A stretch of 64,000 bases of DNA from an uncultured delta proteobacterium (GCA_963716325.1 CAVQTH010000045.1:1505-65504); one strand, 5' to 3'; shown: positions 8,247-61,861, numbered from the stretch's first letter. Notes: generated from the sequence alone by a model not told the origin. Numbers and translations: made by a program.

Positions 8247-8261
8247 AGGAGAGATTGAGAC

Positions 8262-8885: not shown

Positions 8886-8888
8886 GCG

Positions 8889-9407: not shown

Positions 9408-9414
9408 CGGCGGC

Positions 9415-10193: not shown

Positions 10194-10214
10194 CCCGCTG
10201 CGCGGAGACTGCCG

Positions 10215-10775: not shown

Positions 10776-10854
10776 GGCCTGCGGTGCGCAAAACCGAAGG
10801 TTTCTCGCACCCGCCATTGGGTGGAGTTTCTATGCGCTTGAATTGAATATTTTG

Positions 10855-10884
10855 TTGACGGCAGGTATCAATTTAGAATAATAT
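10855..10884 (+). promoter_or_regulatory. Sigma70-like promoter candidate for rplS
   Basis: TTGACG (10855-10860), an 18-nt spacer and TAATAT (10879-10884), in an AT-rich spacer. Confidence 0.4.
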
Positions 10885-10915
10885 TCCAAATTTCGGTGCC
10901 ATCGAAATTTGGAAT
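10883..10915 (+). promoter_or_regulatory. 13-bp perfect inverted repeat between the promoter candidate and the rplS RBS
   Basis: attccaaatttcg-gtgccat-cgaaatttggaat, immediately followed by GAGGAG and the ATG at 10929. Confidence 0.55.
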
Positions 10916-10928
10916 GAGGAGATGAGAG

Positions 10929-11276
10929 ATGAACAAGCTCGAGTTGATCGAACGCGAACAGATGCGGATGGACTTGCCCGACTTCATTCCGGGCGACACC
11001 GTCAAAGTCCACGTCAAAATAAAAGAAGGTGAAAAAGAACGCATCCAGGCCTTCCAGGGCGTGGTCATCGGCAGGCGCGAGGGTAGAATGGGCGCCAGCT
11101 TCACCGTGCGCAAGGTCTCCTACGGCGTCGGCGTGGAGCGCATCTTCCCCATGCATTCGCCGTCCATCGACCGGGTCGAGATCATCACGCGGGGCCGGGT
11201 GCGGCGCGGCAAACTCTACTACCTGCGCAACCTCCGAGGCAAGGCGGCCCGTATCCGCGAGAAACGCCTGAGCTGA
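10929..11276 (+). CDS. rplS: 50S ribosomal protein L19
   Basis: 115 aa containing [29 protein letters not shown]. Confidence 0.95.
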
Positions 11277-11353
11277 CCGGCTGAGGAATTAAGGCCGCCT
11301 GCAGAAGAAGCGTCCGCCCGGCCGCGGCCGCCGCGAACGACCGGCCATACCCG

Positions 11354-12004
11354 ATGGATTTGTGGGCATACGAACATCTATCCGCCCGCCGCGGATACCA
11401 ACGCATCGCAGGAGTTGACGAGGCCGGCCGCGGGCCGCTGGCCGGACCCGTGGTCGCCGCGGCGGTGGTGCTTCCGGCGGATTTCTCCGACCCGCACGTG
11501 ACCGATTCGAAAAAACTCACCCCTGCCCGGCGCGACCGGCTCTACCGCACCATCTACCGCCGGGCCTCCACGGTGGGGATCGGTATCGTCGATGCCGTCG
11601 AAATCGACCGCATCAATATCCTGCAGGCGTCGCTTCGAGCCATGGCGATCGCCGTCGCCAACCTGAGCCCGCCGCCGGACTACCTCCTGATCGACGGCAC
11701 GTTCCCCATCCCGCTGGACCTGCCCCAGAATGCCATCCCCAAAGGGGACGCCCTGAGCATCACGATTGCCGCCGCGTCGATCGTCGCCAAGGTCACCCGC
11801 GACCGGTTGATGGAGATCTATCATCTGCACTATCCGGATTTCGGCTTCGCCCGTCACAAGGGCTACCCGACCCAGGACCACCGGGAGGCGATTCGCACGT
11901 TCGGCTGCTCGCCCATCCACCGGCGCACCTTCCGGGGCGTCCGGGAACACCTGCCCGCGCCCGAGGGGGATGTCCATGCCGCACCCGCGCCAGCAGTACG
12001 GTGA
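11354..12004 (+). CDS. rnhB: Ribonuclease HII
   Basis: 216 aa containing GVDEAGRGPLAGPVVAAAVVL and DSKKL. Confidence 0.92.
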   Translation: MDLWAYEHLSARRGYQRIAGVDEAGRGPLAGPVVAAAVVLPADFSDPHVTDSKKLTPARRDRLYRTIYRRASTVGIGIVDAVEIDRINILQASLRAMAIAVANLSPPPDYLLIDGTFPIPLDLPQNAIPKGDALSITIAAASIVAKVTRDRLMEIYHLHYPDFGFARHKGYPTQDHREAIRTFGCSPIHRRTFRGVREHLPAPEGDVHAAPAPAVR

Positions 12005-12347
12005 AGCCGGCGAGGCCCTGGCGGCCCGTTTGTTGCGCAAGAAGGGGTATAAAATCATTGCGGCCAACTACCGCACCCCGCTCGGGGAGATCGACATCAT
12101 CGCCCGGGACGGCGACACCATCGTGTTCGTTGAGGTCAAGGCGCGCCAGTCCCTGCACTTCGGCAACCCGAAAGGAGCGGTCACCCCACGCAAGCAGCGC
12201 AAAATCTCCATGGTCGCCCTTTACTATCTGAAGACCACCGGGCAAAGCCAATCCAAGGCCCGCTTCGACGTCGTTGCCATTCACTCCACGGCGCCGCAGC
12301 CGGAGGTGGAAATCATTCAAAATGCCTTCGAACTCCTCTATGGATAG
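11970..12347 (+). CDS. yraN: YraN family endonuclease-like protein (UPF0102)
   Basis: 125 aa. GEAGEALAARLLRKKGYKIIAANYRTPLGEIDIIARDGDTIVFVEVKAR is the family signature. Confidence 0.88.
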   Translation: MSMPHPRQQYGEAGEALAARLLRKKGYKIIAANYRTPLGEIDIIARDGDTIVFVEVKARQSLHFGNPKGAVTPRKQRKISMVALYYLKTTGQSQSKARFDVVAIHSTAPQPEVEIIQNAFELLYG

Positions 12348-21609: not shown

Positions 21610-22422
21610 CTACGGCCCCCGCTTTTTGAGGACATAATCAATCACAGAAGCCGGATCCGGTTCTTCGGGCGAGGTCCTGGCATCTGTATTTTCAACAGCC
21701 GGCGTTTCGGAATAACTTGTTCCATCTATTTGAAAATCGTCGCCTGGAGCCCCATCCGCTATTTTGTCATCATTCGTGGAAGACGCGAGGTTCCTGGCTG
21801 CTTCTTGTGTCTCAACCGGATCGAATGCGGGCTGGGTATCTCCAATGACGGCCTTCTCCTTGGACAGCATCGCACTCTGATCTTCCATTCCGTTATCGGG
21901 CAAAGTTGATAGGTGTTCGTTGCCAACTAAAGTCGGCATTTTTTTGATAACCATTGTAACTGTCTTTTGAACGACCTCGCCGCTTTTATCTCTTGCAACT
22001 TCAGAAAACCAATCAACAAAATAGAAAAAAATGCTCCCTACCAGAACGAATGCCACTGTGCTTTTGAGGAATGACTTTAATGCATGATCGCGATGAAAAC
22101 GCTTTCTCTCGGGCGAGCCTTGACCAATTAGCACCTTCGGTGTTTTAGTATCAGTGGAACTCGCCCCCCAGGACTTTTCAGTTAAGTTACTTCCATCAAC
22201 CGAGAGTTCCCGGGTTGCTTTAGTGTCACCGCAGTTCATTTCCGACTCGATAACCTGGATTTGCTTTTTAATAGAGGATTTGGTTGCCGGATCAATGTTG
22301 GCCGAGCGGGCAATATACTTGGCATAGAGCCCCAGCGCCTCTCGATGCAATCCCTGCGAGCGGTAGAGGTCTGCTTCCTTACGGATTAATGCAAAACCAA
22401 TTTTCATGGGAATGACTGCCAA
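21610..22422 (-). CDS. Hypothetical membrane protein (TPR-like N-terminus, one TM, acidic C-tail)
   Basis: 270-aa ORF in a visibly lower-GC stretch with one hydrophobic segment, VAFVLVGSIFFYFVDWF. No recognisable catalytic motif. The start is uncertain (TTG 22422 or ATG 22407). Confidence 0.5.
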   Translation of the reverse strand: MAVIPMKIGFALIRKEADLYRSQGLHREALGLYAKYIARSANIDPATKSSIKKQIQVIESEMNCGDTKATRELSVDGSNLTEKSWGASSTDTKTPKVLIGQGSPERKRFHRDHALKSFLKSTVAFVLVGSIFFYFVDWFSEVARDKSGEVVQKTVTMVIKKMPTLVGNEHLSTLPDNGMEDQSAMLSKEKAVIGDTQPAFDPVETQEAARNLASSTNDDKIADGAPGDDFQIDGTSYSETPAVENTDARTSPEEPDPASVIDYVLKKRGP

Positions 22423-22943
22423 GATGTCAGTCAGGAGCTTCCCGGGGGTAACCGGGAGGCGTTTCTGCCTGTGAATATAATTTTGGTGAATTGCCCATTA
22501 AGGGATCCCATGAACCGATGAAAAACATCCAGGCCAAAGGGGTTTATGTTCTTCAGGCCATGAGTGCAATGGTTCAACGGTTTCCTTTGAAAGGAGGCTC
22601 GATGACTCCATCGCGTCGCAAGGCTCTCGATGACGGCTGTTTCGGGGCGTTGACCGGTCTTGGATAAGGCAGGGATGCGGAGTGTGTAATGCGTGATACC
22701 CGGAAGGCATGTCATAAACCTACGGAATCGAGAGTGTGGAGGAAAGACCCCCGTTCAATTCCGAAGGTTTTCCTCATCGACGCCTACGAGGTTAGCTGAA
22801 GGGCTAGGACCGAAGAGGTTATCCCCCGCCAATTGGCGATACGCCCCAAAAACGTGGGTCCCCCGTTCTCGACGGTTGCCGAGATTAGGCAGAAACATAA
22901 ATAGTCTACATGAAAATTTTTGTCAAGCACCTCGGATGATCTG

Positions 22944-39865: not shown

Positions 39866-39978
39866 CTCACAGGAAGCCCAAAGTCAAGGCGCGCGATCCT
39901 CGCCGAGCGAGGCGTACAGTTCGTACGCCGCAGTGAGCGCGAGGTGAAGCGCAACGCAGGATTTGGGTTTCTTGTGAG
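39866..39978. repeat. Nested inverted-repeat element between mlaD and mlaC
   Basis: Outer arms ctcacaggaagcccaaa (39866-39882) and tttgggtttcttgtgag (39962-39978), 15/17 complementary. Inner hairpins are cctcgc-cga-gcgagg (39898-39912) and ggcgtac-agttc-gtacgcc (39911-39929). Confidence 0.7.
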
Positions 39979-39982
39979 CTCG

Positions 39983-40435
39983 TCACTTTTTGACGTCGCC
40001 GAACGCATATTTGCTTACCAGCTCCATGATGTCGATCGGCGCCTCGGTCTCGGTGATCGCATCTCCCGCTTTCAACAGCGAGCCGCTGCCTCCGGCATCG
40101 ATGCCCACGTAGCGGTCGCCGATGAGACCCTCGGTCTTGATCGAGGCGATGGCGTCGTCGTAGACCTTGACGCCCTTGTTGACCCGCAGTTCCACGATCG
40201 CCTGCTGCTTTTCCTGGTCCATGGTCATCTTGCCCACGCGCCCGACCTCCAAGCCGAGCATGTTGACGGTGCTGCCCGGTTTCAATCCGGTCACCTTGCT
40301 GAAGCGCGCCGTCAACGGGTAGGTGTCGTCCGCAAAAAGTCCGACGTCACCGATCTTGACCGTCATGTAGCCGATGCAGAGCAGGCCGACCAACACAAAG
40401 ATGCCGACCACCGATTCCTTGGAATACTTTTGCAT
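39983..40435 (-). CDS. mlaD: MCE-domain protein MlaD
   Basis: 150 aa with an N-terminal TM anchor and an MCE domain (VTGLKPGSTVNMLGLEVGRV). Confidence 0.88.
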   Translation of the reverse strand: MQKYSKESVVGIFVLVGLLCIGYMTVKIGDVGLFADDTYPLTARFSKVTGLKPGSTVNMLGLEVGRVGKMTMDQEKQQAIVELRVNKGVKVYDDAIASIKTEGLIGDRYVGIDAGGSGSLLKAGDAITETEAPIDIMELVSKYAFGDVKK

Positions 40436-40441
40436 ACCGAA

Positions 40442-41689
40442 TCACCTCCGAGTGCCGCACTGAAACGTGGCGATGGGTTTCTTGTCGAACCGCGCGAATT
40501 CCATGACCGACTCGATTTCCACCTGGGGCTGGCCCTGCGCCATGCCGACCGAGATCACGAAATCAAAGCACTGGTCCGGCGGGATCTCTTTCTGGAACGC
40601 CTCGGTCAGCTCGCGCATGCCGTGCTCCTGGAAATCGGCGGTAAATTTTTCGAGGATGCGCCGGGCCTCGTCCAGGTCGGAAAACGGCAGGATGGTGGCA
40701 AACTCGTTGATGGTTTGCCGCGTGGAGAAGCCGCCGACGGCGCCGAAGTGTTTGCGGATGTAATTGCCGAGCGACCGCAGGGTCTGCTGGGCCGCGTCAT
40801 GGCTGATGGCCTCGCTGATCTCGTCCATGTTGTCGAAACCGAACATCAGCACGGCGTAGGACTCATCGGCCCCCCGCCGCACGAGCTCGGTCTGGTAGCG
40901 GATCTTGAAGTGCCGGGTGGAGTAAAGCCCGGTGATGTCCTCCTGCAGGTTTTCCAGGCTCTGCAGGATTTCATCGTGGAACGGGTGGTTGAAGTTCTCC
41001 ATCTGATCCGGGGTGCCTTCGAACACGATTTTCTTGTCCCACAGGGCCAGAATGCGGTTCGAGATGAAAAACACGTCCGGGATCTCGTGGCTGATGAGAA
41101 TCGCGGTGAAACCGATCTTCTTCTTGTACTCGGCGATCATCCCCAGGATCGCGTTCTTGCGGATGGGGTCCTGGCCGGTGGTGGGCTCGTCGAACAGCAC
41201 GATCTGCGGGTCGGTCACCAGCGCCCGGGCCAGGGCGGCGCGCTTCTGCATGCCGCCGGAGATCTCCGAGGGGTATTTGTGCGCCACTTCGGTCAACTCG
41301 GTCTGCTGGATCCGGGCCATGGCCTTGGCCTCGATCTCCTTGCGGCCGAGCGTGGTGGTACGTTTGAGCGGCAGGGCGACGTTCTCAAAGACGGTCATCG
41401 AGTCAAACAGGGCGTTGTTCTGGAACATGTAGCTGATCCGGCCGATGTAAGCGTTCCACTCCTGGCGGGTCATGCGGTTGATGGGTTGGCCCTGGTAGAG
41501 GATCTCCCCCGCGTCCGGTTTGAGCAGCCCGATGATGTGCTTGAGCGTGACACTCTTGCCCGTGCCGCTCAGGCCGATGATGGTGGTCACCTCGCCTTCG
41601 TAGACCTTGAAGTTGACGCCGTCCAGGATCGTGCGTTCGCCGAAGCGCTTGGTGACGTTGCGGAACTCGATCAGGGGCTGCTGTTCCAT
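40442..41689 (-). CDS. mlaF: MlaF-type ABC ATPase fused to a C-terminal degenerate GGDEF domain
   Basis: 415 aa. GLSGTGKS, ISGGMQKRAALARAL and VLFDEPTTGQDP, then DITGLYSTRHF...YAVLMFGFDNMDEI...RQTINEFATILPF...FVISVGMAQ (GGDEF fold with the signature replaced by TINEF). Confidence 0.85.
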   Translation of the reverse strand: MEQQPLIEFRNVTKRFGERTILDGVNFKVYEGEVTTIIGLSGTGKSVTLKHIIGLLKPDAGEILYQGQPINRMTRQEWNAYIGRISYMFQNNALFDSMTVFENVALPLKRTTTLGRKEIEAKAMARIQQTELTEVAHKYPSEISGGMQKRAALARALVTDPQIVLFDEPTTGQDPIRKNAILGMIAEYKKKIGFTAILISHEIPDVFFISNRILALWDKKIVFEGTPDQMENFNHPFHDEILQSLENLQEDITGLYSTRHFKIRYQTELVRRGADESYAVLMFGFDNMDEISEAISHDAAQQTLRSLGNYIRKHFGAVGGFSTRQTINEFATILPFSDLDEARRILEKFTADFQEHGMRELTEAFQKEIPPDQCFDFVISVGMAQGQPQVEIESVMEFARFDKKPIATFQCGTRR

Positions 41690-41701
41690 GCCGTCCTCGC
41701 G

Positions 41702-42550
41702 TTACAGGAGAAAAGACGTGACCACGTAGTCCGAAACCAGGATCATGACGCAGGAGAGCACCACGGCCGATGTGGTGGACAGGCTGACACTCTTGGAGCC
41801 GTAGCTGTCTCTGCGCATGTGGGTGAAATAGCCCTGGAAGCAGCAGATGGTGATGACCAGCACGGCGAACACGATCGACTTGATGAAGCCTCCCTTGACG
41901 TCGATCCACTCCACGCTGGCGTCGACCCGATAGAGGTAGGAGCCGGCACTGGCCCCCATGAGAATGACCCCGCTCAGGTAGCCGCCCAGGATGCCGATCA
42001 GGTCGAAGAAGGCCGTCAGGATCGGGAAGCTGATCAAGGCCGCGGCGATGCGTGGGCTGATGAGGTAGCCGAGCGGGTCGATGCGCATCGTGGTGAGGGC
42101 GTCGATCTGCTCGGAGATGCGCTGGATCCCAATCTCGGCGGTCATGGCGGAGCCCGCCCGGGCGGTGATCATGATCGCCGCCAGCACGGGCCCCAGCTCC
42201 CGGATCAGCGAGAGGGACACCGCTGTGCCCAGGAACCCGACCGCACCGAACTTGTTCATGACGTAGTACAGCTGAAGGCCGAGCACCATGCCCGTGAAAA
42301 ACCCCACCAGGGCGACGATGCTCGCCGATTTGGCGCCGATGAAGTAAACCTGGTTCACGATCTCGGGGATCTGCTTCCAGTGAAAGATCTGGATGAACGC
42401 CCGCGCCAGGAATATGGCCATCGCGCCCAGATTGTTGTTGAGCTGAATGCCGAAGCGGCCGAAGGGGTTCAAAATGGCCGGCAAAAGCGACCCCCGATCT
42501 TTCGAGGCGGCGCTGATCGGTTCGTTGTCTGGTAACTGGTCGACTGCCAT
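41702..42550 (-). CDS. mlaE: ABC transporter permease MlaE
   Basis: 282 aa containing LIRELGPVLAAIMITARAGSAMTAEIGIQRISEQIDAL, the MlaE signature. Confidence 0.9.
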   Translation of the reverse strand: MAVDQLPDNEPISAASKDRGSLLPAILNPFGRFGIQLNNNLGAMAIFLARAFIQIFHWKQIPEIVNQVYFIGAKSASIVALVGFFTGMVLGLQLYYVMNKFGAVGFLGTAVSLSLIRELGPVLAAIMITARAGSAMTAEIGIQRISEQIDALTTMRIDPLGYLISPRIAAALISFPILTAFFDLIGILGGYLSGVILMGASAGSYLYRVDASVEWIDVKGGFIKSIVFAVLVITICCFQGYFTHMRRDSYGSKSVSLSTTSAVVLSCVMILVSDYVVTSFLL

Positions 42551-42769: not shown

Positions 42770-43519
42770 ATGAAGAAACTGGTGTTGCTGCGTCATGGCG
42801 AGAGCCTGTGGAACAAGGAAAACCGTTTCACCGGCTGGACCGACGTGGGGTTGACGGAAAAAGGCGTCCAGGAGGCCGTCGAGGCCGGGCGACTCCTGAA
42901 AAAGGATGGTTACGTGTTCGACGTGGCGTTCACCTCGGTTCTCAGCCGCGCCATCAAAACCCTCTGGCTCGCGCTGGAGCAGATGGACCGGATGTGGATC
43001 CCGGTGCACCTGAGTTGGCGGCTCAACGAGCGGCACTACGGCGCGCTGCAGGGTCTGAACAAGGCCGAAACCGCGGAGCGCCACGGCATGGACCAGGTGA
43101 TGTTGTGGCGCCGCAGCTACGACATCCGCCCCCCGGCGCTCACGTCCGACGACGCGCGCTTCCCCGGCCACGACCCCCGCTACCAGGGCCTGGGGCTGAA
43201 GGACCTCCCGCTCACGGAATGCCTGAAGGACACCGTCGAGCGGTTTCTGCCCCACTGGCACGACACCATCGCCCCGGCCGTGAAATCCGGCCAGCGCGTC
43301 GTCATCTCCGCCCACGGCAACAGCCTGCGGGCCCTGGTCAAATACCTCGACAACATCTCCGAAAAGGACATCCTGGAACTCAACATACCGACCGGCATCC
43401 CCCTGGTCTATGAATTGGGCGACGACCTGAAACCCCTGCGCAGCTACTACCTGGGAGACCCGGAAGCGGCGAAAAAAGCCGCCCAGGCGGTTGGCGACCA
43501 GTTGAAAAAGAAAAAGTAA
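42770..43519 (+). CDS. gpmA: 2,3-bisphosphoglycerate-dependent phosphoglycerate mutase
   Basis: 249 aa containing [23 protein letters not shown] and [11 protein letters not shown]. Confidence 0.93.
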
Positions 43520-43593
43520 CGTGAAAGAATGATGAGTGCGTCTGCCCCCGGCAGCGCCGACGACCCACTGAATAAAGGAGCGAAGCAGCCCCC

Positions 43594-45708
43594 ATGGATT
43601 TGATCACGACCGCCACAAACGGATTTTCCCAATTGGACGTTTCCGAGAAGGTTAAATCCGCCGCCCTGGCCAACCTGCAAACCTGGCTGACCGACCTCGC
43701 CTTTGCCGAGTATGCCCCCCAGATCCGCTACCTGATCGAGGCCGGCAAATGGGATGTACTCCTGGACTCCTTTTACCAGGTGATCCCCTTCGGCACCGGC
43801 GGCCGCCGCGGGCCGGTGGGCATCGGCCCGAACCGCATCAACGCGTGGACCATCCAGGCCTCGGCCCAGGGGCATTCCCAGTATCTCTTGAGAATCTACG
43901 GCGAGGAGGCCAAACGCCGGGGCGTCGTCATGACCTTCGACGTCCGCATCTACCGCCTCAAGGGGATCTATTCCGACGACATCCCCAACCCGGTGAAAGA
44001 CCTCGACGGCTGGAGGCTTGCCCGGGCCGCGGCCGAAGTCTACGCCGCCAACGGCATCCGGAGCTACCTCTTCGAAACCGTGCGCAGCACGCCGGAGCTC
44101 TCGTTTGCCATCCGCCACCTCAAGGCCATCGCCGGCGACATGTTCAGCGCCAGCCACAACCTGCCCCCCGACAACGGCAAGAAGGTCTATGACGAGTTCG
44201 GCGGCCAGCTCATTCCGCCGCACGACCAGACGCTGGTGGACGAGGTCACCGGCAACGTCCAGGCGATCCGGCACCTGCCCTTTGACGAGGCCCGTCGCCG
44301 CGGCCTGGTGGTTATCCTCGGGGAGGAAATCGACCGCGCCTATCAGGATGCGGCCGGCGGGGTGTCCCTCTCCGGGGAGCGCGGCCTGAAAATTTTCTAC
44401 TCGCCGCTGCACGGCACCGGCATCACCACGGTCTACCCGGTGCTCAAACACCTGGGTTTCGACGTGGCGCTGTGCCCGGCGACCTCCAACCTGAGCGGGG
44501 CATTCGAGAAGGTGACGTTCAACATCCCCAACCCGGAGGTGGTGGAATCCTTTAGCACCTCCCTGCCGCTGGCGCAGAAGGCGGGCGCCGACATCCTGCT
44601 CAGCACCGACCCGGATGCGGACCGCATCGGCATCATGGTGCACCACCGCGGGCAGTGGCTTTTCCTGACCGGCAACGAGATCGCCATCATCCTGGCCAAC
44701 TACGCCATCGACCGGCTGCGCGCCGCGGGCCGTTTGACCCCGCAGCGGGTGATCGTCAAAACGGACGTCACCACCGCCCTGATCGACAAGATGGCCCGGG
44801 AGAACAACATCACCTGCGTCGGCGACCTGCTGGTCGGCTTCAAGTACGTGGCCGAGGAAATGAACAAGCTGGAATCCGCCGGCCGCGGGTCGGACTTCAT
44901 TTTCGGCTGCGAGGAAAGCCACGGCTACCTCACGGGCACCTATGCCCGCGACAAGGACGCGGCCGGCGCCGCGGTCTGGATCGCCGAGTATGCGGCCCGA
45001 CTCAAACAGCGCGGCAAGACCCTGGTGGACGCCCTCGACGAGATCTACTCCGCCTATGGCTACTGCCACAACTACCTGACCGAGATCCGGCTGCTGGGCG
45101 CCAAGGGCATGGAGCAGATCGCGGCCATCATGGACCACTTCCGGGGTCGGGCGGTGGAGCGCTTCGGTGATTTCACGGTGGCCGAAAAGATCGACCGCTG
45201 GCAGGGCGCGCCCCAGCCGCACCTGTCCGAGACCGACACCTCCGCCCGCAACGCCATCATCTTCCGCCTCCGGAACGTGCCCGAAACGACCGGCCTGCGC
45301 GTCACCGTGCGGCCGTCGGGGACCGAGCCCAAGATCAAGATGTATTTCGAATTGGTAGGCAAGCCCTGCCGCCTCGAAGATCTCGCCGCGGCCAAGCAGG
45401 CGCTCGTCGATGTCCGCCTGCAGCTCGAAAAGACCTTCATGCGCTACTGCTACGGCCTGATCGGCGTGGATTTCCCCGAACGCGGCTTTCTCCTGTTCTG
45501 GCAACTGCCCCTCAAGGACAAACTGAAGTACTTTGAGATCGAGGACGAGATCGCCCGGCTGAAAGACATCCCGGAGCGCAAGACCCGCACCGAAAAACTG
45601 AACTCCCTACTCAAGTTTTTAGGAGCCAACCCCGTCCAGAAGGTGGACAATGCCTTCAAGGCCCGCTTCGAGGCGGGCATCCAGGATTACCTGGGTTTGG
45701 CCCCCTGA
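43594..45708 (+). CDS. Alpha-D-phosphohexomutase family protein (phosphoglucomutase/phosphomannomutase) with a C-terminal extension
   Basis: 704 aa. Active-site loop MFSASHNLPPDNG, Mg loop STDPDADRIG and sugar loop GCEESHGY. Confidence 0.82.
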   Translation: MDLITTATNGFSQLDVSEKVKSAALANLQTWLTDLAFAEYAPQIRYLIEAGKWDVLLDSFYQVIPFGTGGRRGPVGIGPNRINAWTIQASAQGHSQYLLRIYGEEAKRRGVVMTFDVRIYRLKGIYSDDIPNPVKDLDGWRLARAAAEVYAANGIRSYLFETVRSTPELSFAIRHLKAIAGDMFSASHNLPPDNGKKVYDEFGGQLIPPHDQTLVDEVTGNVQAIRHLPFDEARRRGLVVILGEEIDRAYQDAAGGVSLSGERGLKIFYSPLHGTGITTVYPVLKHLGFDVALCPATSNLSGAFEKVTFNIPNPEVVESFSTSLPLAQKAGADILLSTDPDADRIGIMVHHRGQWLFLTGNEIAIILANYAIDRLRAAGRLTPQRVIVKTDVTTALIDKMARENNITCVGDLLVGFKYVAEEMNKLESAGRGSDFIFGCEESHGYLTGTYARDKDAAGAAVWIAEYAARLKQRGKTLVDALDEIYSAYGYCHNYLTEIRLLGAKGMEQIAAIMDHFRGRAVERFGDFTVAEKIDRWQGAPQPHLSETDTSARNAIIFRLRNVPETTGLRVTVRPSGTEPKIKMYFELVGKPCRLEDLAAAKQALVDVRLQLEKTFMRYCYGLIGVDFPERGFLLFWQLPLKDKLKYFEIEDEIARLKDIPERKTRTEKLNSLLKFLGANPVQKVDNAFKARFEAGIQDYLGLAP

Positions 45709-45725
45709 GGAGCTTTGATATTTCC

Positions 45726-45752
45726 TGTGGGAGCGGCTTTCCAGCCGCGATC
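45726..45752 (+). repeat. REP-like hairpin element, copy 3
   Basis: Exact tgtgggagcggctttccagccgcgatc, 18 nt after the phosphohexomutase stop. Confidence 0.8.
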
Positions 45753-46033
45753 GACGATTGCGCAGGGTCGGGCCTTGATTGACCGCCCGCTTCGCTTGAG
45801 ACGCAAAGTGCGCGGAGTGAATTATGTTTTCAAACCACCGTGAGAGGCGGCGGTTTGAAAAATGTCGCTCAAAGGGAATGCAAGGCCTCGCCGAAAGCCC
45901 AGGTGGGCCTTTTCCGGCGCCGGCCTCTCACCGGCACCGGAAAAAAGAAAACCCTCAGCGGCCTTTGCGTCTCTGCGGTGATATAGCGCCTTACCCACTC
46001 GTCAAAAGCCATCCGCCAGCCGAGGAGGACTCT

Positions 46034-47464
46034 GTGACATTTCCCTTCAACAAAACCAAGATCGTCGCCACCATCGGCCCGGCGTCGGATTCACCGGAGG
46101 TGCTCCGGCAGCTGATCCTGGCCGGCATGAATGTCGTGCGCCTCAATTTCTCCCACGGCGATTTCTCCGGCCATGGGGAGACCATCGCCCGGGTCCGTGC
46201 CGCGGCCGCGGCCGCCGACCGACGGGTCGCCATCATGGCTGATCTGCCGGGGCCCAAGATGCGCATCGGCAAATTTGTTGAAGAACCGATCCAACTCGCC
46301 GCCGGCGAGATGTTCACGCTGACGACGGAGGACATCATCGGCTCGCGGCAGCGCGTGTCGGTCAGCTTCCCGCAGCTGCCTGCATCGGTCCGTCCGGGCG
46401 ACCGGCTGTTCCTCAACGACGGCTATATCGAAATGGAGGTCGTTCAGGTCAAGGGTCCCGACGTCGTCTGCCGCGTCCAGGTGGGAGGCGAGTTGCGGTC
46501 GCGCAAGGGAGTGAACCTGCCCGGGATCGATCTCGGCATCAGCGCCTTCACCGAGCACGATCGCAAGTGCCTGGAGTTCGCCCTGCAGCACGGGGTCGAT
46601 GCCGTGAGCCAGTCTTTTGTAGACCGGGCGGAGGACATTGCGGCCGTGCGCGCCGCCGCGGCCGCCTTAGGATACCACCCCATGATCATCGCCAAGATCG
46701 AGCGCTCCGGGGCCCTGAAGCGCATCGACGAGATCATGGACGCCGCCGACGGCATTATGGTGGCGCGCGGCGACCTCGGGGTGGAGATCCCCATCGAAGA
46801 GATGGCCGTCGCTCAGAAACGGTTGATGCGTCTGGCCAACGTCACGTGCAAGCCGGTGATCACCGCCACCCAGATGCTGGAGTCCATGATCACCAACCGC
46901 CTGCCGACCCGGGCCGAGGCGACCGACGTGGCCAACGCCATCCTCGACGGGACGGATGCCGTGATGCTCTCGGGTGAGTCGGCCATGGGCCGCCACCCCG
47001 TCGAGGCCGTCGCCATGCTGGCGAAAATCGCGGCGGCCACCGAATCCCACCGCGCGGACTTCGGCACGGTCTGCGCCGGCGCAGTCATGGCCGGCAACGA
47101 GAACATCCAGGCCGAGGAACTGATTGCCGCCAGTGTGGAAGCCACCATCCGGCGCATCACCCCGGCCACGGTCATCGTCCCCACCCACAGCGGCGGCACG
47201 GCCCGCGGCATCGCCCGCTTCCGGCTGCCGGTGTGGATCACCGCCGTGAGCTCCCAGGAGAAAACCTGCCGGGACCTGATGTTTTCCTATGGGGTCTTCC
47301 CGGTGTGCGAAAAAGAACACCCGGACCGCTGGATCGACTGGTGTCGGCGCTGGCGGGAAGAGCAGAAGCTGACCGGCCGCTACATCGTGCTGACCGAAGG
47401 CCCGTCCCGCAAGCACCCGGACCGCAACAACCGCATGGAGATCATCGACCTTGGGAGGCAATGA
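46034..47464 (+). CDS. pyk: Pyruvate kinase
   Basis: KTKIVATIGPASDSPE, NFSHGD and MVARGDLGVEIP. I chose the GTG at 46034, after GAGGAGGA. The upstream part of the track ORF lies in repeat-rich spacer. Confidence 0.9.
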   Translation: MTFPFNKTKIVATIGPASDSPEVLRQLILAGMNVVRLNFSHGDFSGHGETIARVRAAAAAADRRVAIMADLPGPKMRIGKFVEEPIQLAAGEMFTLTTEDIIGSRQRVSVSFPQLPASVRPGDRLFLNDGYIEMEVVQVKGPDVVCRVQVGGELRSRKGVNLPGIDLGISAFTEHDRKCLEFALQHGVDAVSQSFVDRAEDIAAVRAAAAALGYHPMIIAKIERSGALKRIDEIMDAADGIMVARGDLGVEIPIEEMAVAQKRLMRLANVTCKPVITATQMLESMITNRLPTRAEATDVANAILDGTDAVMLSGESAMGRHPVEAVAMLAKIAAATESHRADFGTVCAGAVMAGNENIQAEELIAASVEATIRRITPATVIVPTHSGGTARGIARFRLPVWITAVSSQEKTCRDLMFSYGVFPVCEKEHPDRWIDWCRRWREEQKLTGRYIVLTEGPSRKHPDRNNRMEIIDLGRQ

Positions 47465-47492
47465 GATACTCGATACGAGATGCCGGATGCTG
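47465..47492 (+). repeat. Tandem heptamers GATACTC GATACGA GATGCCG GATGCTG directly after the pyk stop
   Basis: Four units with a shared GATRC core, starting at the first base after TGA. Confidence 0.7.
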
Positions 47493-47506
47493 GTTAAAAA
47501 ACGGTT

Positions 47507-47532
47507 GATCGCGGCTTGAAGCCGCTCCCACA
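47507..47532 (-). repeat. REP-like hairpin element, copy 4 (loop variant)
   Basis: The plus strand reads gatcgcggcttgaagccgctcccaca. Same arms as the other copies, with a TGA loop. Confidence 0.75.
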
Positions 47533-47553
47533 AAAACAGCATAATGAAATGCT

Positions 47554-47590
47554 GTTATCCAGCATATAGAATCACGTATCCAGCATCACC
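47554..47590 (-). repeat. Heptamer-periodic array in inverse orientation (ATC recurring at 7-nt spacing)
   Basis: gttatcc agcatat agaatca cgtatcc agcatca; complementary to the GATRC units on the other side of the REP hairpin. Confidence 0.6.
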
Positions 47591-47664
47591 CTCGGAATCG
47601 CGCATACCAGCGTAGATGAGAGCAACGACCTCATTAATCAACTAACCGGCACGAAGGAGTCAAG

Positions 47665-49324
<1,660 letters not shown>

Positions 49325-49376
49325 CGAGCAACGAGTAATGAGTGATGAGTCAGAGTTCAAAGTGATGAGTGATGAG
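49325..49376 (+). repeat. Tandem heptamer array immediately 3' of pgi
   Basis: CGAGCAA CGAGTAA TGAGTGA TGAGTCA at 49325-49352, and TGATGAG TGATGAG at 49363-49376. Confidence 0.7.
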
Positions 49377-49392
49377 CAAAAAGGAATTCTCC

Positions 49393-49836
49393 ATGAAAAT
49401 CTTGACTGCCCCACGCATGGAACGCTGCATCGGCTGCCACTCCTGCTCGCTCGCGTGCGCACGCCAGGTGCACAAGAACCTGTCCTGGAACACGGCCGGC
49501 ATCCGCATCGCCTCCTCCGGCGGGCTGTCCACCGGCTTCGAGGCCCGCACCTGCCTCGCCTGCGACCCGGCGCCCTGCGCCGCAGCCTGCCCCACCGGCG
49601 CCTACTCGCAGCGCAAGGGCGGCGGGGTGGTCGTGCGCAAGAAGCTGTGCATCCGCTGCGGGGAGTGCGCCCGCGCCTGCCCGGTGGATGCCGTTTACCT
49701 GGCGGCGGACGGCGAGCCCTTCGTGTGCATCCACTGCGGACGCTGCGTGCCCTTCTGCCCCCACGACTGCCTGGAGCACAAAGAGATCGGGGGCGAGGCG
49801 GCCGCTGAAGCGGCGGCCGGTGGAGGTGAATCATGA
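49393..49836 (+). CDS. 4Fe-4S dicluster ferredoxin-like protein (AOR-associated electron-transfer subunit)
   Basis: CIGCHSCSLAC, CLACDPAPCAAACP, CIRCGECARACP and CIHCGRCVPFCP cluster motifs. Its stop overlaps the aor start. Confidence 0.8.
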   Translation: MKILTAPRMERCIGCHSCSLACARQVHKNLSWNTAGIRIASSGGLSTGFEARTCLACDPAPCAAACPTGAYSQRKGGGVVVRKKLCIRCGECARACPVDAVYLAADGEPFVCIHCGRCVPFCPHDCLEHKEIGGEAAAEAAAGGGES

Positions 49837-51626
49837 TCCGGGACCATTTCCGCGTGATGCGGGTCGACCTGAACACGGCCCGGGGCGAGATCCTGACGCT
49901 GGAGGGCCGCGATCTTTACGCGGGCGGCAGCGGCCTGGCGGCCCTCTTGTTTGCCAAGTTCGCCCGGCCGGACAAACCCTGGGACGACCCCGACCAGCCG
50001 CTCATATTCGCCATCGGGCCCCTGACCGGCCTCTTCCCCCTCATGAGCAAGACGGTCTGCGCGTTCAAGTCCCCCTACCACAACCAGTTCGCCGAGAGCC
50101 ACGGCGGCGGGCGCTCGGCCCTCGCTTTGCGGTTTGCCGACCTCGATGCACTGGTCGTCACCGGCAAGGCACGGACGCTCAGCTGTCTGTCCATCGGCTC
50201 CCGCCACATGGAAGTCAAAGACGTGCACTTCATGCGCGGCTTCGACATCCACGCCACGGGCAAACTCTTGCGGCGCATGTTCCCCGGCGCCGGGCACCGC
50301 AGCATCCTGCGCATCGGGCCGGCGGGCGAGAGTCTGTCCGCCATGGCCTGCGTCATCGTCGACACCTACCGCCACTTCGGCCGCCTCGGCGCCGGCGCCG
50401 TCATGGGCGTGAAGAACCTCAAAGGCATCGCCATCCAGGGGGACGGCTCCTTCCCGCTGCCCGAGGGCAAGGACTACCCCAAACTTTTCCAGGACGTCTA
50501 CGGCCTGCTGACCGGAACGGAAATGATGCACAAGTACCACAACCTCGGGACGGCCGAGAACGTGATCGTGCTGAACGAGCTCAAGGCGCTGCCCTTCCGC
50601 AACCTGCAGCGGACGAGCGACCCCTCGGCCGTCGAGATCAGCGGGGAAAAGTTCGCGGAGAAAACGCTGCTGCGCAACGCAGCCTGCGCCGGCTGCCCGG
50701 TCGGCTGCATCCACCTGGGGTTCGTGCGCGAAAAATTCATGGAACCCAACCAGTACCTCTACCGGCAGGTGTCCTACGACCATGAACCGATTTTCGCCGT
50801 GGGCTGCATGCTGGCGGTGACCGACCCCTTCGCGGCTCTCGACATCATGGAGGAAGCGGACAAGGTGGGCCTTGACGTCATGTCGGCCGGCGTGGCGCTC
50901 GCCTGGGCCACGGAGGCGAGTGAGAAGGGGCTCGTCTCCCCCGTCGAGACCGTCGTGCCCCTGCGCTTCGGGGACGCGGCCGCCTTTCAGCAGGCCATGT
51001 GGCACCTGGCGCGCGGGGAAAACGAATTCTACCGCCTGCTCGCCTCAGGCACCCTGCACGCCGCCGAGCGCTTCGGCGGGGCGGACTTCGCCTGCGTCCT
51101 GGGCCAGGAAATGGCGGGCTACGCAACCGGCGAAGTCTTCTTCGTATCCCAGGCCCTGGGGCTCAGGCACTCGCACTTGGATTCCGGCGGCTACTCCTTC
51201 GACCAGAAGCACACCGAGAAGGACGCGGCCAAGGCGGTCGAGTTCCTTATAACCGATGAAGCCAGCCGCTGCTTCCTTACGTCCATGGTGTCCTGCCTGT
51301 TTGCGCGCGGGGTTTACACCGAGGCCCGCCTGGCGGAGTGCCTGAAAGCGGTGGGGTACACCGCTTTGGCCGAAAACATCGGGGCGGTGTCCCAGCGGGT
51401 CCAGCGCGAGCGCTGGCGCTTGCGGTTGGCGACGGGCTACGAGCCCGAGCGTGTCGAGATCCCGAAGCGTTTCTCAGAGGTCGTCACCTGGAAAGGACCC
51501 ATCGATGGGCAATACCTGTCGGATCTGAAAGCGGAATACAGCCGGCGCATTCGCACCCTCGCCGCCGAAGCCGCACAACCCGGCGGCGCCGATGCCGAAC
51601 CCCGGGAAAAGAGAAAAAAAGAATGA
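49833..51626 (+). CDS. aor: Aldehyde:ferredoxin oxidoreductase family (tungstopterin enzyme)
   Basis: 597 aa. AOR N-domain (LYAGGSGLAA..PLIFAIGPLTG..KSPYHNQFAESHGGG) and Cys ligands within CAGCPVGCIH. Confidence 0.88.
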   Translation: MIRDHFRVMRVDLNTARGEILTLEGRDLYAGGSGLAALLFAKFARPDKPWDDPDQPLIFAIGPLTGLFPLMSKTVCAFKSPYHNQFAESHGGGRSALALRFADLDALVVTGKARTLSCLSIGSRHMEVKDVHFMRGFDIHATGKLLRRMFPGAGHRSILRIGPAGESLSAMACVIVDTYRHFGRLGAGAVMGVKNLKGIAIQGDGSFPLPEGKDYPKLFQDVYGLLTGTEMMHKYHNLGTAENVIVLNELKALPFRNLQRTSDPSAVEISGEKFAEKTLLRNAACAGCPVGCIHLGFVREKFMEPNQYLYRQVSYDHEPIFAVGCMLAVTDPFAALDIMEEADKVGLDVMSAGVALAWATEASEKGLVSPVETVVPLRFGDAAAFQQAMWHLARGENEFYRLLASGTLHAAERFGGADFACVLGQEMAGYATGEVFFVSQALGLRHSHLDSGGYSFDQKHTEKDAAKAVEFLITDEASRCFLTSMVSCLFARGVYTEARLAECLKAVGYTALAENIGAVSQRVQRERWRLRLATGYEPERVEIPKRFSEVVTWKGPIDGQYLSDLKAEYSRRIRTLAAEAAQPGGADAEPREKRKKE

Positions 51627-51713: not shown

Positions 51714-52724
51714 TTACTCGACCTTCTTCCATGTCTTATCGGGATCGAACGACGTCATCGCCTTTGCGGTCTTCGCGGTGTTTTTGCCGAGGTCCTTCTC
51801 GTAAACCACCCCTTCGTGGTTCACCACAAATGTCATGACACCGGAACTTCCATATACTGCCGGATACGCAACCACGGCAAACCCGCCGATCATTTTGTTT
51901 TTTACGACGTAATCAAACGCCCCGCCGGAGGCATGTTTCCCCTGCTTCTTCAGCAGCCTGAAATAGTAGCCGTGAAAGGGAATGGGGCCTTGCTTCGGTC
52001 CGGTCCGGGTGTACCCCTCGGCCCGTGCATCGGCCACCAGTTCACCTAAAGGGCTCGGCCCCTCGCCTTCCTTCGTCTCCCAGTAGAGGCCATTCTTCTT
52101 GCCGGGATCGCTCCGTAATTTTTCTGCGTACGCGCGGAGTCCGTCGTTGTCACGGTCAATCAGCGCGTATTCACGCTGCGCATCGACTATGGCAAGCAGG
52201 GTCTGCACCGTGCTTAACTCGTCCTCTCCGATCCTGCGGTTCAGGATCTCCTCCTTCCCCGCCTGTGTATCAAAAATCCACTGGTCTCCCCTTTTCACCA
52301 AGGGAATCGGAAAGGGCCAATCCTTCTCCCCGACCACCAGGACCATCTTGGCTCCTTCCTGGGTGATGCTGTTCTTCCGGTCATAATCGCTGATAAACAT
52401 CTCCCGCCGCTGTTTGTCCCTGACAGGGTCCCCTGAAGATATCAGCTCTTTTGCCGCCGTACCGAAGATCGACAGCAGCGCCTGCTCATCATTCGATCGC
52501 ATAGCGGTCGCAAAGGCATTTACCGCCTCATCCGGAGTTGCGAACCCCTTCTGTTTGACGGCTGCATCAGCCTTAACCCCGACAATAATAATGATCATGG
52601 CGACAACCGCCGCTGCAAAAAGCCGAAATGCAAAACGCGCGGATGGACCTTTTTTATTTTTTTCTGGAAGCATCGTTGTTTTCTCCCTTGAACCTTCCTG
52701 CATTGACGATCGGTATGTTTTCAT
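51714..52724 (-). CDS. DUF2950 family protein
   Basis: 336 aa. N-terminal anchor, then DWPFPIPLVK, YAEKLRSDPGKKNGLYWE, FHGYYFRLL and GGFAVVAYPAVYGSSGVMTFVVN, typical of DUF2950. Confidence 0.75.
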   Translation of the reverse strand: MKTYRSSMQEGSREKTTMLPEKNKKGPSARFAFRLFAAAVVAMIIIIVGVKADAAVKQKGFATPDEAVNAFATAMRSNDEQALLSIFGTAAKELISSGDPVRDKQRREMFISDYDRKNSITQEGAKMVLVVGEKDWPFPIPLVKRGDQWIFDTQAGKEEILNRRIGEDELSTVQTLLAIVDAQREYALIDRDNDGLRAYAEKLRSDPGKKNGLYWETKEGEGPSPLGELVADARAEGYTRTGPKQGPIPFHGYYFRLLKKQGKHASGGAFDYVVKNKMIGGFAVVAYPAVYGSSGVMTFVVNHEGVVYEKDLGKNTAKTAKAMTSFDPDKTWKKVE

Positions 52725-52726
52725 GG

Positions 52727-54007
52727 CTACCTCCTGCCTCCACCGCCGCCGCGGCCGCCGCCGCCACCGCCACCCCGGCCGCCGCCACCGCCGCCCCTCG
52801 ATGCGGCACCGCTCATGCCGCCGCCACCCCCGCTGCCGGATGACATGCTCTGGCGGCTGGAACTGCCGCGATTGCTGGCATCACGTGTGGCGCTTCCGCC
52901 CCGGTCCATGCCTGAAAAGGCGCTGTCTCTCTGACCGGACAAATCCCGCCCCCCGGCCTCCCTGGTTCCTGCCTTGCCTTCAAGGCCGCCTCGCTGGCCG
53001 GCACCCTGGCTGCCCCTGGACTGGTCAGCGCCTCCGCGGGCCATATCCTGCCGGCCGGTGTCGGCACGTCCCCGGAAATTTTCCCTGGACTGAACGGCAT
53101 CATTGGTTGATGCCCGGTTGAACTTCTGTCCCGTTGCCTGGTCCCGGTATGAGACCCCTTTGCGATGCTCGGGGTTGTGCTGCCAGTTCCCCTGGCCGCC
53201 CTGATATTGCTTTGCATAGTTGCCGCGGTTGATGTTGTTGTTGATATTGGTATTTCGGTTGATATCGACATCGACATCGCCGCCGTTCCAGTTGCAGCCG
53301 CCCCACGCATACCCCCAGGCGGCGCCGACCGCCATCCCGACTCCAAAGGATAACAGGGCCGTCCCGGCCACATATCCCGGCGGATAGTAGGGGGTGGGCG
53401 GATAAGCCGGGTATGGCCATGCGCCGTAGACGACCGTCGGGTTGTAGGTCGGCACATAGACGACCTGGGGGCTGGCAGACTGAATGATGATCGTCTCCTT
53501 CTCGACGATCACTTGCTGCTCCTGCGTGGTCTTCAGGTTGCCCGCTTCCACGGCCTTCTTCCGAAGCGCCTGGACCGTGGCCATGACGTCTTTTTGTTGT
53601 GCGAGGAATGCGTCGCCCAGCTTCTGCGTCCAGTCAAGCTTTTCGCTCATCATGGTCAGCACCTGCGGAAAGTTGACGAGGGACTTGACGCTCGGGTCCC
53701 ACGGTTGTTTCTCAAGCGCCGCCGTCAGGGCATCTCCCTTGAGGGTCGTATTCTGCTTGGCCCAGCGGTCTGCCTGCACCACTTCCAGGGGATAGGTCGA
53801 GGCCATGAAGATCTGGGCCAACAGCGAATCGGGATAGAGGGCGATCGGCGCCAGCATCTGGTCCAGCTCCTCCTGTTTGAAAACAGGTTGGTCCGCCTGC
53901 TGCCCGAACGTCCCCGGCGGGACCGCCATCATGAGCACGAGGACCAAGGCCAGGGCACGCGCGCATTTTTCTCTCATTCCTCTTAATTTCATAACATCTC
54001 CTTTCAT
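52727..54007 (-). CDS. DUF3300 family protein with a Gly/Arg-rich C-terminal tail
   Basis: 426 aa. Signal peptide, LAPIALYPDSLLAQIFMASTYPLEVVQADRW (DUF3300 signature) and the tail GGGGGRGGGGGGGRGGGGGRR. Confidence 0.75.
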   Translation of the reverse strand: MKGDVMKLRGMREKCARALALVLVLMMAVPPGTFGQQADQPVFKQEELDQMLAPIALYPDSLLAQIFMASTYPLEVVQADRWAKQNTTLKGDALTAALEKQPWDPSVKSLVNFPQVLTMMSEKLDWTQKLGDAFLAQQKDVMATVQALRKKAVEAGNLKTTQEQQVIVEKETIIIQSASPQVVYVPTYNPTVVYGAWPYPAYPPTPYYPPGYVAGTALLSFGVGMAVGAAWGYAWGGCNWNGGDVDVDINRNTNINNNINRGNYAKQYQGGQGNWQHNPEHRKGVSYRDQATGQKFNRASTNDAVQSRENFRGRADTGRQDMARGGADQSRGSQGAGQRGGLEGKAGTREAGGRDLSGQRDSAFSGMDRGGSATRDASNRGSSSRQSMSSGSGGGGGMSGAASRGGGGGGRGGGGGGGRGGGGGRR

Positions 54008-55952: not shown

Positions 55953-56306
55953 ATCCCCCTGATATTGTTTGCCCCACCTCTTTTACCTTTTCGAGAGTGC
56001 CTTGGGCAAGGGTAATCTTAGCCGGCAGACAGCAGCAGGCTCGTCGGGTCAATGATGAATCTAATAGTCGGTCGTCGGCTTGTTAAGTCCCATTTAAAAG
56101 AAGCTCTTAGAAGCCAAAGGATTCGACCTATGCGATTAAGGCAAACCTACGCAAAATTGCACCTTCCCTAAGCTAAACTAACGAGCTTGGCACCCCGCCA
56201 AAGATTCGTTCCAGGGCACGGAGTCCAATCACCCTGAGGTTCGTGTGATTTTTTGTTGCCTATTGAAAGGTTAGCTGGGCATAGGATATCATCCGATGTA
56301 TTACCG

Positions 56307-56327: not shown

Positions 56328-56364
56328 ACCACTAACTGAGAATTGCCTACTGAAGGAGATCAAA

Positions 56365-57183
56365 ATGGGTGAAAAGAGAGCAGCGTTGTCCCGCCGCGAC
56401 TTCATGTCTGCGGCCGGTCTTTTTGCTGCCGGCGGCATTGCGGGGTGCGCGAGCCATGCAGTGTCTGCCCAGCAACCGGCGGCACCCGAGCCTCCGCCAT
56501 TGCCGTGGAAGTGGACGAAGCTCGATCCGCTGGAAGCGGGCCGCAGGGCCTACCGCGGCTACCTCACGAAGCCGCCGGGCGGGTGAGGGTACGGCACTTG
56601 GCTGGGGTTCTCCAGCCTGCTGAAGGAAAAAGTCGGCTATCCCTGGACGACGCTTCCTGCGAACATGTTCGTACATGCCGGGCAGGGCTACGCCGGTCAC
56701 GGGACGCTCTGCGGCGCTCTGGGTGTCAGCTCGTACGTTATCAACATGGCCTGCTACGACGACAAGCAGAGCTATGCGGCCATCATCGACCGGATGATGT
56801 ACTGGTATTCCGGGATGAAGTTTCCGACCGAACGGTTCGACGACATTTCGGCTTGCCCCAAGCAGATCCAGACCCAGGCGATGACCCCCCTTTGTCACAC
56901 CTCGGTTTCGAAGTGGACGCTTGCGGCCGGAGCCGAAGTCACCTCCAAGGAAAAGTACGAAAGATGCGCGAAGGTGGCAGGCGAAGTTGTCTACACCGTT
57001 GTGTATTACCTCAACGAATATTTCGACGGGAGGTGGAAGCCGGTTCAGTGGACGCCCTCGGAAAACATCGCCCATTGCATTCAGTGCCATGGGCCGGAGA
57101 CCTTCCCGGACTACACCGACGGCATGAACCAGCAGCAGGGGCATATGGAATGCCTGCTCTGCCATACGGACCACACCAAATAA
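56365..57183 (+). CDS. Candidate selenoprotein: Tat-signal, C_GCAxxG_C_C-type Cys-cluster domain plus two C-terminal CxxCH haem motifs (split-Soret cytochrome c-like); in-frame UGA at 56584-56586
   Basis: ORFs 56365-56586 and 56665-57183 share a frame (offset 300 nt). The only interruption is TGA at 56584, and read-through gives ...LTKPPGG-U-GYGTWLGFSSLLKEKVGYPWTTLPANMFVHAGQGYAGHGTLCGALGV. Also present: the SRRDFM twin-arginine motif, CIQCH and CLLCH. A GGAG lies 7 nt before the ATG. Confidence 0.6.
56600..56617 (+). promoter_or_regulatory. Candidate bacterial SECIS stem-loop
   Basis: GGCUGG-GGUUCU-CCAGCC. The stem starts 13 nt after the UGA (56584-56586). The apical loop begins with GGU, about 19 nt after the UGA. 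Confidence 0.45.
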
Positions 57184-58493: not shown

Positions 58494-59054
58494 ATGATGA
58501 AACACCTTCGTTTGACGACCATTCTCTTGGTGTTTGCATTTGTTGCGGGTGCACTCACCAGCCCGCATCCCGCCATAGCGGCGTCCGCCGCAGAAATTGA
58601 CCGTGATGCACAGAAAGCCCTGGGGGATCTATATGCAAAATCCCCATCAGCCAAAACGATGGGTGAAAAGGCGATAGGCATCCTGGTCTTTCCGGGCATC
58701 GTCAAGGGGGGTTTTATAGTGGGCGGCCAATATGGCGAGGGCGCTCTGATCAAAGACGGAAAGACGGTTGGGTACTATAACACGATTGCGGCCTCTTATG
58801 GACTGCAGGCCGGCCTTCAGAAATTTGGCTACGCGCTCTTTTTCATGACCGAGTCCGCCCTGAAGTGGCTCGACAAGAGTGATGGCTGGGAAATCGGCGT
58901 CGGTCCGAGCATCGTCGTCGTGGACGTCGGTGCGGCCGCATCCATGACGAGCACCACCCTTCAATCCGATATCTATGCGTTTTTCTTTGATCAGAAGGGA
59001 CTGATGGCGGGGCTCGGTTTGCAGGGTACGAAAATCACCAGACTCGAAAAATAG
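58494..59054 (+). CDS. SYLF (Ysc84-like, DUF500) lipid-binding domain protein, secreted
   Basis: 186 aa. AIGILVFPGIVKGGFIVGGQYGEGAL, SYGLQAG and FFFDQKGLMAGLGLQGTKI fit the SYLF domain. Confidence 0.7.
   Translation: MMKHLRLTTILLVFAFVAGALTSPHPAIAASAAEIDRDAQKALGDLYAKSPSAKTMGEKAIGILVFPGIVKGGFIVGGQYGEGALIKDGKTVGYYNTIAASYGLQAGLQKFGYALFFMTESALKWLDKSDGWEIGVGPSIVVVDVGAAASMTSTTLQSDIYAFFFDQKGLMAGLGLQGTKITRLEK

Positions 59055-59350: not shown

Positions 59351-61861
<2,511 letters not shown>

Follow-up and report, generated by a model that had tools for sequence, protein, structure and literature searches.

Twin-arginine (Tat) signals are documented on split-Soret cytochromes, both on Shewanella SO0939 (PMC3623810) and on archaeal members of the family (PMC4429474). 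Selenoproteins have already been catalogued in the family PF09719 (C_GCAxxG_C_C), including one called form 2, WP_012158890.1 (PMC13188914, PMC9312934), and the sequences of both PF09719 selenoprotein forms are given in the deep-Sep supplement (PMC12013277). Other c-type cytochromes that contain selenocysteine (Sec) are the ExtKL multihaem cytochrome, a GSU2204-family CXXCH protein and an octahaem cytochrome of the tetrathionate-reductase family (PMC13188914). Here we analyse a gene in a stretch of 64,000 nucleotides (nt), referred to below as the window, from an uncultured delta proteobacterium (GCA_963716325.1, CAVQTH010000045.1:1505-65504). The gene, at 56365-57183, contains an in-frame UGA and encodes a protein resembling the split-Soret cytochrome c (Ssc) of Desulfovibrio desulfuricans ATCC 27774 (PDB 1H21). 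An original prediction, made from the sequence alone, proposed that this UGA codes for selenocysteine. It also stated that no selenoprotein form of PF09719 was known to it and that a Tat signal combined with c-type haem motifs is unusual. Both points need correction, since such forms are in the catalogues, with the Sec of WP_012158890.1 at the same column, and the Tat signal is a documented trait of the split-Soret family. The central proposal fares better: we find that the UGA very probably does code for selenocysteine, in a single gene of the split-Soret cytochrome type.

The UGA column in split-Soret-type cytochromes

Translation confirmed that the gene consists of 272 codons in a single frame on the plus strand, with one internal stop, a TGA, and that this frame is shared by the 73- and 172-amino-acid (aa) open reading frames (ORFs) listed mechanically at the locus. 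All searches used the read-through product with Cys substituted for the stop. The NCBIfam model NF047622, 'split-Soret cytochrome c', matches residues 9-269 (E=9.5e-37) with 126.9 bits and does not reach its equivalog cut-off of 400 bits, so the protein is related to the Desulfovibrio protein and is not its equivalog. A phmmer search of the PDB found 1H21 (E=7e-24, residues 47-268), bearing out the predicted split-Soret likeness, and a profile of 25 sequences matched 1H21 with E=5.8e-31. When an AlphaFold model (pLDDT 61) was submitted to Foldseek, 1H21 was the sole significant PDB match (E=1.9e-7, TM 0.58/0.65). Pfam PF09719 scores 26.9 bits at residues 86-211 (E=5.4e-6), against a gathering threshold of 27.0, and a precomputed PF09719 label is attached to nearly all homologues. 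The product is thus predicted to be a 272-residue precursor with a Tat signal, a PF09719-type N-domain and a di-haem C-domain, the architecture of a periplasmic split-Soret cytochrome c. Because its identity to Ssc is only about 30% and its NF047622 score falls so far under 400 bits, we place it in a distinct subfamily, one that occurs widely in metagenomes from soil, sediment and wetland.

A large protein search returned 498 relatives. Those at 80-94% identity are all 172-193 aa long and cover just the C-terminal 63-69% of the query, and the full-length relatives (~275 aa, 57-68% identity) all have 'GGCG' at the UGA column. The DNA of truncated relatives at ten loci, from different metagenomes, carries an in-frame TGA at the same column, with the same hairpin 3' of it and, where the contig reaches that far, a conserved ORF with an RR motif on the 5' side. 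Scanning GTDB with one genome for each species added another 80 loci. In total, 91 loci including the window were compared, each classified by alignment. The UGA column holds TGA in 40 of them (the window, L001-L036, L043, L056 and L088) and TGC or TGT in the other 51. It lies opposite the Cys of 'GCGFG' in 1H21 and a Cys in every one of the 51 Cys-type homologues. Species-representative genomes account for 29 of the TGA loci, and these genomes are mostly labelled Syntrophobacteraceae, Desulfobacterales/Desulfobacteraceae or 'delta proteobacterium'.

In a neighbour-joining tree built on the C-terminal 198-205 residues of 90 sequences, one branch parts the 39 complete Sec-type sequences from the 51 Cys-type sequences, and the lowest identity inside the Sec clade is 66%. 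This clean split, together with identities down to that level, therefore indicates that the switch between Cys and Sec happened once and is old, and we place it in an ancestor of a clade mostly labelled Desulfobacterota (Syntrophobacteraceae, Desulfobacterales). Some Sec-type genomes, at L011, L024, L034 and L043, have labels outside that phylum, namely Bacteroidales, Rokubacteria, Betaproteobacteria and Rhodobacterales. Their contigs may have been labelled or binned wrongly, or the selenoprotein gene may have moved by horizontal transfer.

The sequence on both sides of the UGA is kept as protein in the Sec clade, with synonymous entropy of up to 1.6 bits. The segment between the two ORFs behaves in the same way, as was predicted for a read-through product: in codons +1 to +26, from the UGA to the first downstream ATG, residues are conserved and synonymous sites are variable. 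The original prediction also held that the UGA occupies the position of the first family Cys. This holds within the split-Soret subfamily. For the Pfam model the match in position is only rough: the alignment begins after residue 74 and simple extension puts the model's first Cys about 4 residues downstream.

Each of the sequence motifs named in the prediction (SRRDFM, IAGC, GTLCGALG, CIQCH and CLLCH) is present. In the 90 sequences, C116, C177 and C201 are invariant (90/90), and so are both haem motifs at C238, C241 and H242 and at C263, C266 and H267 (90/90). An S/T-R-R motif and the hydrophobic stretch after it are kept at the N-termini of full-length Cys-type sequences and of the Sec clade; Tat profile models match weakly and under their cut-offs, with 18.3 bits for TIGR02811 (cut-off 48.45) and 11.4 bits for TIGR01409 (16.7). 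The lipobox-like IAGC, at residues 25-28, had been put forward as a possible lipobox. It exists in the window, but its Cys is not conserved in the clade, occurring in 4/7 distinct related Sec-clade N-termini and missing from 3/7, and the lipoprotein reading is not supported.

The RNA hairpin downstream of the UGA

The hairpin GGCUGG-GGUUCU-CCAGCC that the prediction had described starts 13 nt 3' of the UGA, and the combination of TGA and hairpin recurs at this column in 39 other independent loci. According to ViennaRNA, a seventh pair (G-U) is possible, which reduces the loop to a GUUC tetraloop. We compared this structure with the bacterial selenocysteine insertion sequence (bSECIS) model (PMC13188914 Fig. 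2), using our own implementation and not bSECISearch. The model specifies a loop of 3-9 nt, a stem of 4-16 base pairs (bp), a G in one of the first two loop positions, a distance of 16-37 nt from UGA to loop, and a minimum free energy (MFE) of -7.5 kcal/mol or lower. The window hairpin fits it, with a stem of 7 bp, the loop GUUC, a spacing of 20 nt (loop start at 19-20 nt from the UGA) and an MFE of -10.6 kcal/mol. Across the compared loci, the model was passed by 39/40 of Sec type, in agreement with the predicted pairing of a Sec-UGA with a SECIS-like hairpin, versus 4/51 of Cys type at the same column. Among all TGA triplets of the window, the background rate is 168/1961 (8.6%).

The pattern of conservation in the stem is specific to the Sec clade. 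In the 35 distinct sequences of Sec type, a single A-G mismatch (in L030) is the one departure in stem pairs 1-5, and pairs 6-7 show G-C/G-U switches only, or pair 7 is open. The 13-nt spacer between UGA and stem occurs in 26 variants among the same 35 sequences, in which the stem is fixed. In the Sec clade, codon choice in the stem is all but fixed: Leu is CTG in 38/38, Gly is GGG in 38/39, and the two Ser codons are TCC in 20/20 and AGC in 39/39. Synonymous entropy reaches 0.9-1.6 bits at the stem columns in the Cys clade and 1.2-1.6 bits at neighbouring conserved codons in the Sec clade. The hairpin is under selection on its RNA sequence and structure, and this selection is tied to the presence of the TGA.

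Probable decoding as selenocysteine and its alternatives

The conservation of the column and the hairpin suggests how the gene would be expressed. The UGA would not be read as a stop in translation; the hairpin, with its G-first apical loop at 19-20 nt 3', would recruit SelB together with Sec-tRNA(Sec), and selenocysteine would be delivered as residue 74. The Tat signal would export the protein with its N-terminal cofactor domain pre-folded, and the CxxCH sites would receive their two haems in the periplasm. By analogy with 1H21, and from their conservation, Sec74, Cys116, Cys177 and Cys201 may hold a non-haem Fe-S centre. Sec might then take the place of one thiolate ligand, or be a redox-active neighbour of the centre, and adjust how electrons pass to the stacked haems. 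A bolder reading, which we rate as somewhat less likely than not, is that Sec74 is a direct Fe-S ligand in a di-haem cytochrome c exported by Tat. Nature would then have a selenolate-ligated iron-sulfur cluster, retained after one ancient switch in a clade of anaerobes mostly labelled Desulfobacterota and overlooked by present annotation, and dozens of species would have its Cys-type counterparts.

Several observations weigh against this interpretation. The first group concerns the RNA. Over the 67 nt that follow the UGA, the fold has no greater stability than shuffled sequence (z=0.40), and the MFE of Sec-type loci is only weakly different from that of Cys-type loci (-12.7 vs -11.0 kcal/mol, p=0.015). 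A search of the stem for two-sided compensatory changes gave none, the G-C/G-U switches being the only paired variation. Our RNA evidence is therefore one of conservation, and not of thermodynamics, because the fold does not exceed its shuffles, nor of covariation, because the stem lacks compensatory changes. Rfam, searched at the locus with E up to 10, gave no match to a SECIS family, its only hit being a chance flavivirus frameshift match on the other strand; Rfam is not known to have a general bacterial SECIS model, and this null thus says little. L030, the sole bSECIS failure of the 40, is a Sec-type locus with a stem mismatch (6223-6270, uncultured Desulfobacterium sp. TRIP AH-1). Here a C-to-A change, which turns Leu CTG into Met ATG, disrupts stem pair 3, and a different hairpin with a GGGG loop forms instead.

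The second group concerns machinery and structure. Neither the 64-kb window nor the flanks of 31 Sec-type loci yielded selA, selB, selD or tRNA-Sec: tRNA genes are absent from the window, 40 ORFs searched there gave no SelA, SelB or SelD Pfam match, and a tRNA-Sec search of the 31 related loci gave none. The AlphaFold model has moderate confidence. As for the iron centre, the 1H21 entry is titled 'a novel iron centre', and papers citing the structure gave no ligand detail; Abreu and co-workers reportedly assigned the four N-domain residues of 1H21 as ligands of that centre in 2003.

If the UGA is read through in some other way, a near-cognate or suppressor tRNA could insert Trp, Cys or Arg, and the hairpin could slow the ribosome or sit there by chance. 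The lack of Sec machinery in the window, the unexceptional stability of the hairpin and a stem without compensatory changes would all suit such an explanation. The column, however, is Cys in every homologue that lacks the TGA, a classic Sec/Cys pair, and the catalogued selenoprotein WP_012158890.1 has U at the same position. The hairpin also fits all four bSECIS constraints, and synonymous sites are frozen only where the TGA is present. In addition, the clade labels are mostly Desulfobacterota, a selenoprotein-rich group (PMC1976440). We consider read-through without Sec improbable. A general reassignment of UGA is excluded, since TGA is the ordinary stop of 14/25 Pfam-supported genes in the window.

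The locus could also be two genes, a 73-residue Tat-signal peptide gene that ends at the TGA and a separate cytochrome gene downstream. This is how every database annotates it, with gene callers giving products of 172-193 aa from the ATG at 56665, or from a TTG in relatives. Against this, protein-level conservation extends over the 26 codons from the TGA to the first ATG, and these codons align with 1H21 and with every Cys-type protein. The window has CTG in place of the TTG from which the calls of 187-193 aa start in relatives, and the Cys-type homologues are single polypeptides. The downstream piece moreover has two haem c motifs and no signal peptide. Haem motifs require export, and only the piece 5' of the UGA has a signal peptide. 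Two separate genes are, in our judgement, very unlikely. If the gene were a pseudogene, or the TGA an error of sequencing or assembly, one base change (TGC or TGT to TGA) would suffice, but the same column holds TGA in 40 loci from independent assemblies, 29 of them species-representative genomes, in a clade where identity falls to 66% and both flanks of the UGA are under purifying selection, and we give this explanation almost no weight. Decoding as selenocysteine is the reading that we clearly prefer.

Gene layout, surroundings and relation to known proteins

We regard 56365-57183 as one gene that has a ribosome-binding site, and probably also a promoter, of its own; for the promoter, a consensus scan gave a candidate about 70 nt 5' of the start codon (Table 1). 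The 270-nt gap 3' of the stop codon contains no convincing small gene like the 71-aa call of L001 and L002.

Table 1. Positions of the features of the split-Soret-type cytochrome gene in the window.
Feature	Position	Strand	Basis or remark
Candidate sigma-70-like promoter, TTGAAA-18-TATCAT	56263..56292	+	10/12 consensus matches; weak match
Ribosome-binding site, AAGGAG	56353..56358	+	Read from sequence; 6 nt 5' of ATG
Coding sequence, probable selenocysteine-containing split-Soret-type cytochrome c precursor	56365..57183	+	272 codons, one internal TGA, homology
Twin-arginine (Tat) type signal peptide, predicted	56365..56463	+	Motif plus hydrophobic stretch; extent inferred
SRRDFM motif, residues 9-14	56389-56406	+	Within Tat-type signal peptide
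C_GCAxxG_C_C-like (PF09719) N-terminal domain	56503..57009	+	Four conserved ligand-type residues U74, C116, C177, C201
In-frame UGA, residue 74, probable selenocysteine	56584..56586	+	Cys/TGA column across homologues
Bacterial SECIS hairpin, stem GGCUGG(G)/(U)CCAGCC, apical loop G(G)UUC(U)	56600..56617	+	bSECIS model, conservation
Hairpin 5' arm, GGCTGG	56600-56605	+	
Hairpin loop, GGTTCT	56606-56611	+	
Hairpin 3' arm, CCAGCC	56612-56617	+	
C116	56710-56712	+	GTLCGALG segment, residues 113-120
C177	56893-56895	+	Conserved ligand-type residue
C201	56965-56967	+	Conserved ligand-type residue
Haem c motif 1, CIQCH, residues 238-242	57076..57090	+	Aligned with CGECH of 1H21
Haem c motif 2, CLLCH, residues 263-267	57151..57165	+	Aligned with CTPCH of 1H21

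Analysis of the gene neighbourhood revealed no conserved respiratory partner. A pair of DUF2950 and DUF3300 genes (51714-54007, minus strand) adjoins the split-Soret-like gene in the window and occurs in about 20/76 loci, of both Sec and Cys types, for example in L012 at 3740-5915; the pair may have a functional link to the split-Soret-like gene. A Ysc84-like gene at 58494-59054 recurs in 9 loci.

Other candidates for genes split by a TGA in the window were rejected. Those at 41689-39983 (minus strand) and 9846-10775 (plus strand) are adjacent genes that share one frame, and the one at 1663-2247 is a shadow ORF. At 41689-39983, the first gene codes for an MlaF-like ABC ATPase that is extended at its C-terminus by ~170 aa and has TGA as its stop, and an MlaD-like gene follows two codons on in the same frame; the longest plus-strand ORF there (39944-42535) is a shadow ORF with a low GC content at third codon positions (GC3). 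The region 1326-12067 contains several long ORFs with GC3 of 0.48-0.64 and no Pfam match, and because of these two properties we take them as probable shadow ORFs in the wrong frame. True genes of that region include, for example, a TrmD-like C-terminus at 9846-10190 (plus strand).

Elsewhere in the window, a c-di-AMP riboswitch (RF00379; 22766-22901, minus strand, 85.3 bits, E=1.9e-18) lies upstream of the small minus-strand ORFs 22431-22715 and 21610-22422, the larger of which has no Pfam match. A cluster for sugar and glycogen metabolism (42770-51626 and 59351-61861, plus strand) includes genes for a histidine phosphatase, phosphoglucomutase, pyruvate kinase, glucose-6-phosphate isomerase and aldehyde:ferredoxin oxidoreductase (AFOR). 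A long ORF further on in this cluster is a candidate glycogen phosphorylase, judged by eye.

In the literature that was searched there is no description of this clade, nor any paper that has both split-Soret and selenocysteine. Among the best 120 matches, every database entry from the Sec clade is truncated at or after the UGA; these entries form nine clusters with ~770 member sequences, all without signal peptide and Sec residue. Because the entries lack both, selenoproteome counts and cytochrome inventories for anaerobes of peat, soil, groundwater and bioreactors are slightly wrong. Three things are new here: Sec is combined with a di-haem domain, the Sec form arose once and long ago, and the clade is broad, with 29 species representatives. 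Already known are Sec at this column in a related haem-less protein, the ordinary bSECIS and the large selenoproteomes of the host group. The finding adds a haem-containing architecture to the catalogued PF09719 selenoproteins and leaves the understanding of Sec decoding unchanged, and the advance is modest and incremental. If Sec were indeed a ligand of the iron centre, the clade and its counterparts would provide natural Sec/Cys pairs for the study of selenium-ligated Fe-S clusters beside stacked haems.

The protein shares with Ssc of D. desulfuricans the order of the four N-domain Cys positions and the two C-terminal CxxCH motifs, and differs from it in having UGA/Sec where Ssc has the Cys of GCGFG. 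Form 2 of the PF09719 selenoproteins aligns with window residues 3-218 at 34% identity (E=3e-35). It has a Tat-like N-terminus (TRKDFL), the other three Cys are aligned, and the U of its ...KEKGGUGAG... falls on the window's UGA column, BLASTP setting the GGCG of the window opposite GGUG. Unlike the window protein, however, form 2 is 223 aa long, ends opposite window residue 218, at the point where a haem domain would start, and has no CxxCH or haem domain, and is thus not a cytochrome. Form 1, a small selenoprotein from a deltaproteobacterial source, belongs to the same Pfam family (49.8 bits) and has its Sec where the first of the family's four Cys would be (MGEQYTUAEAIL...). In alignments by the Pfam model and by MAFFT, the latter ambiguous by 4 residues at the first Cys, this column lies ~4 residues downstream of the window Sec, so the two columns are at best roughly equivalent; form 1 also differs in its length of 142 aa and in having neither a signal peptide nor a haem domain. 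The ExtKL, GSU2204-family and tetrathionate-reductase-family octahaem cytochromes resemble the window protein in combining Sec with CxxCH haem motifs, but they belong to unrelated families and have no PF09719 domain or split-Soret architecture.

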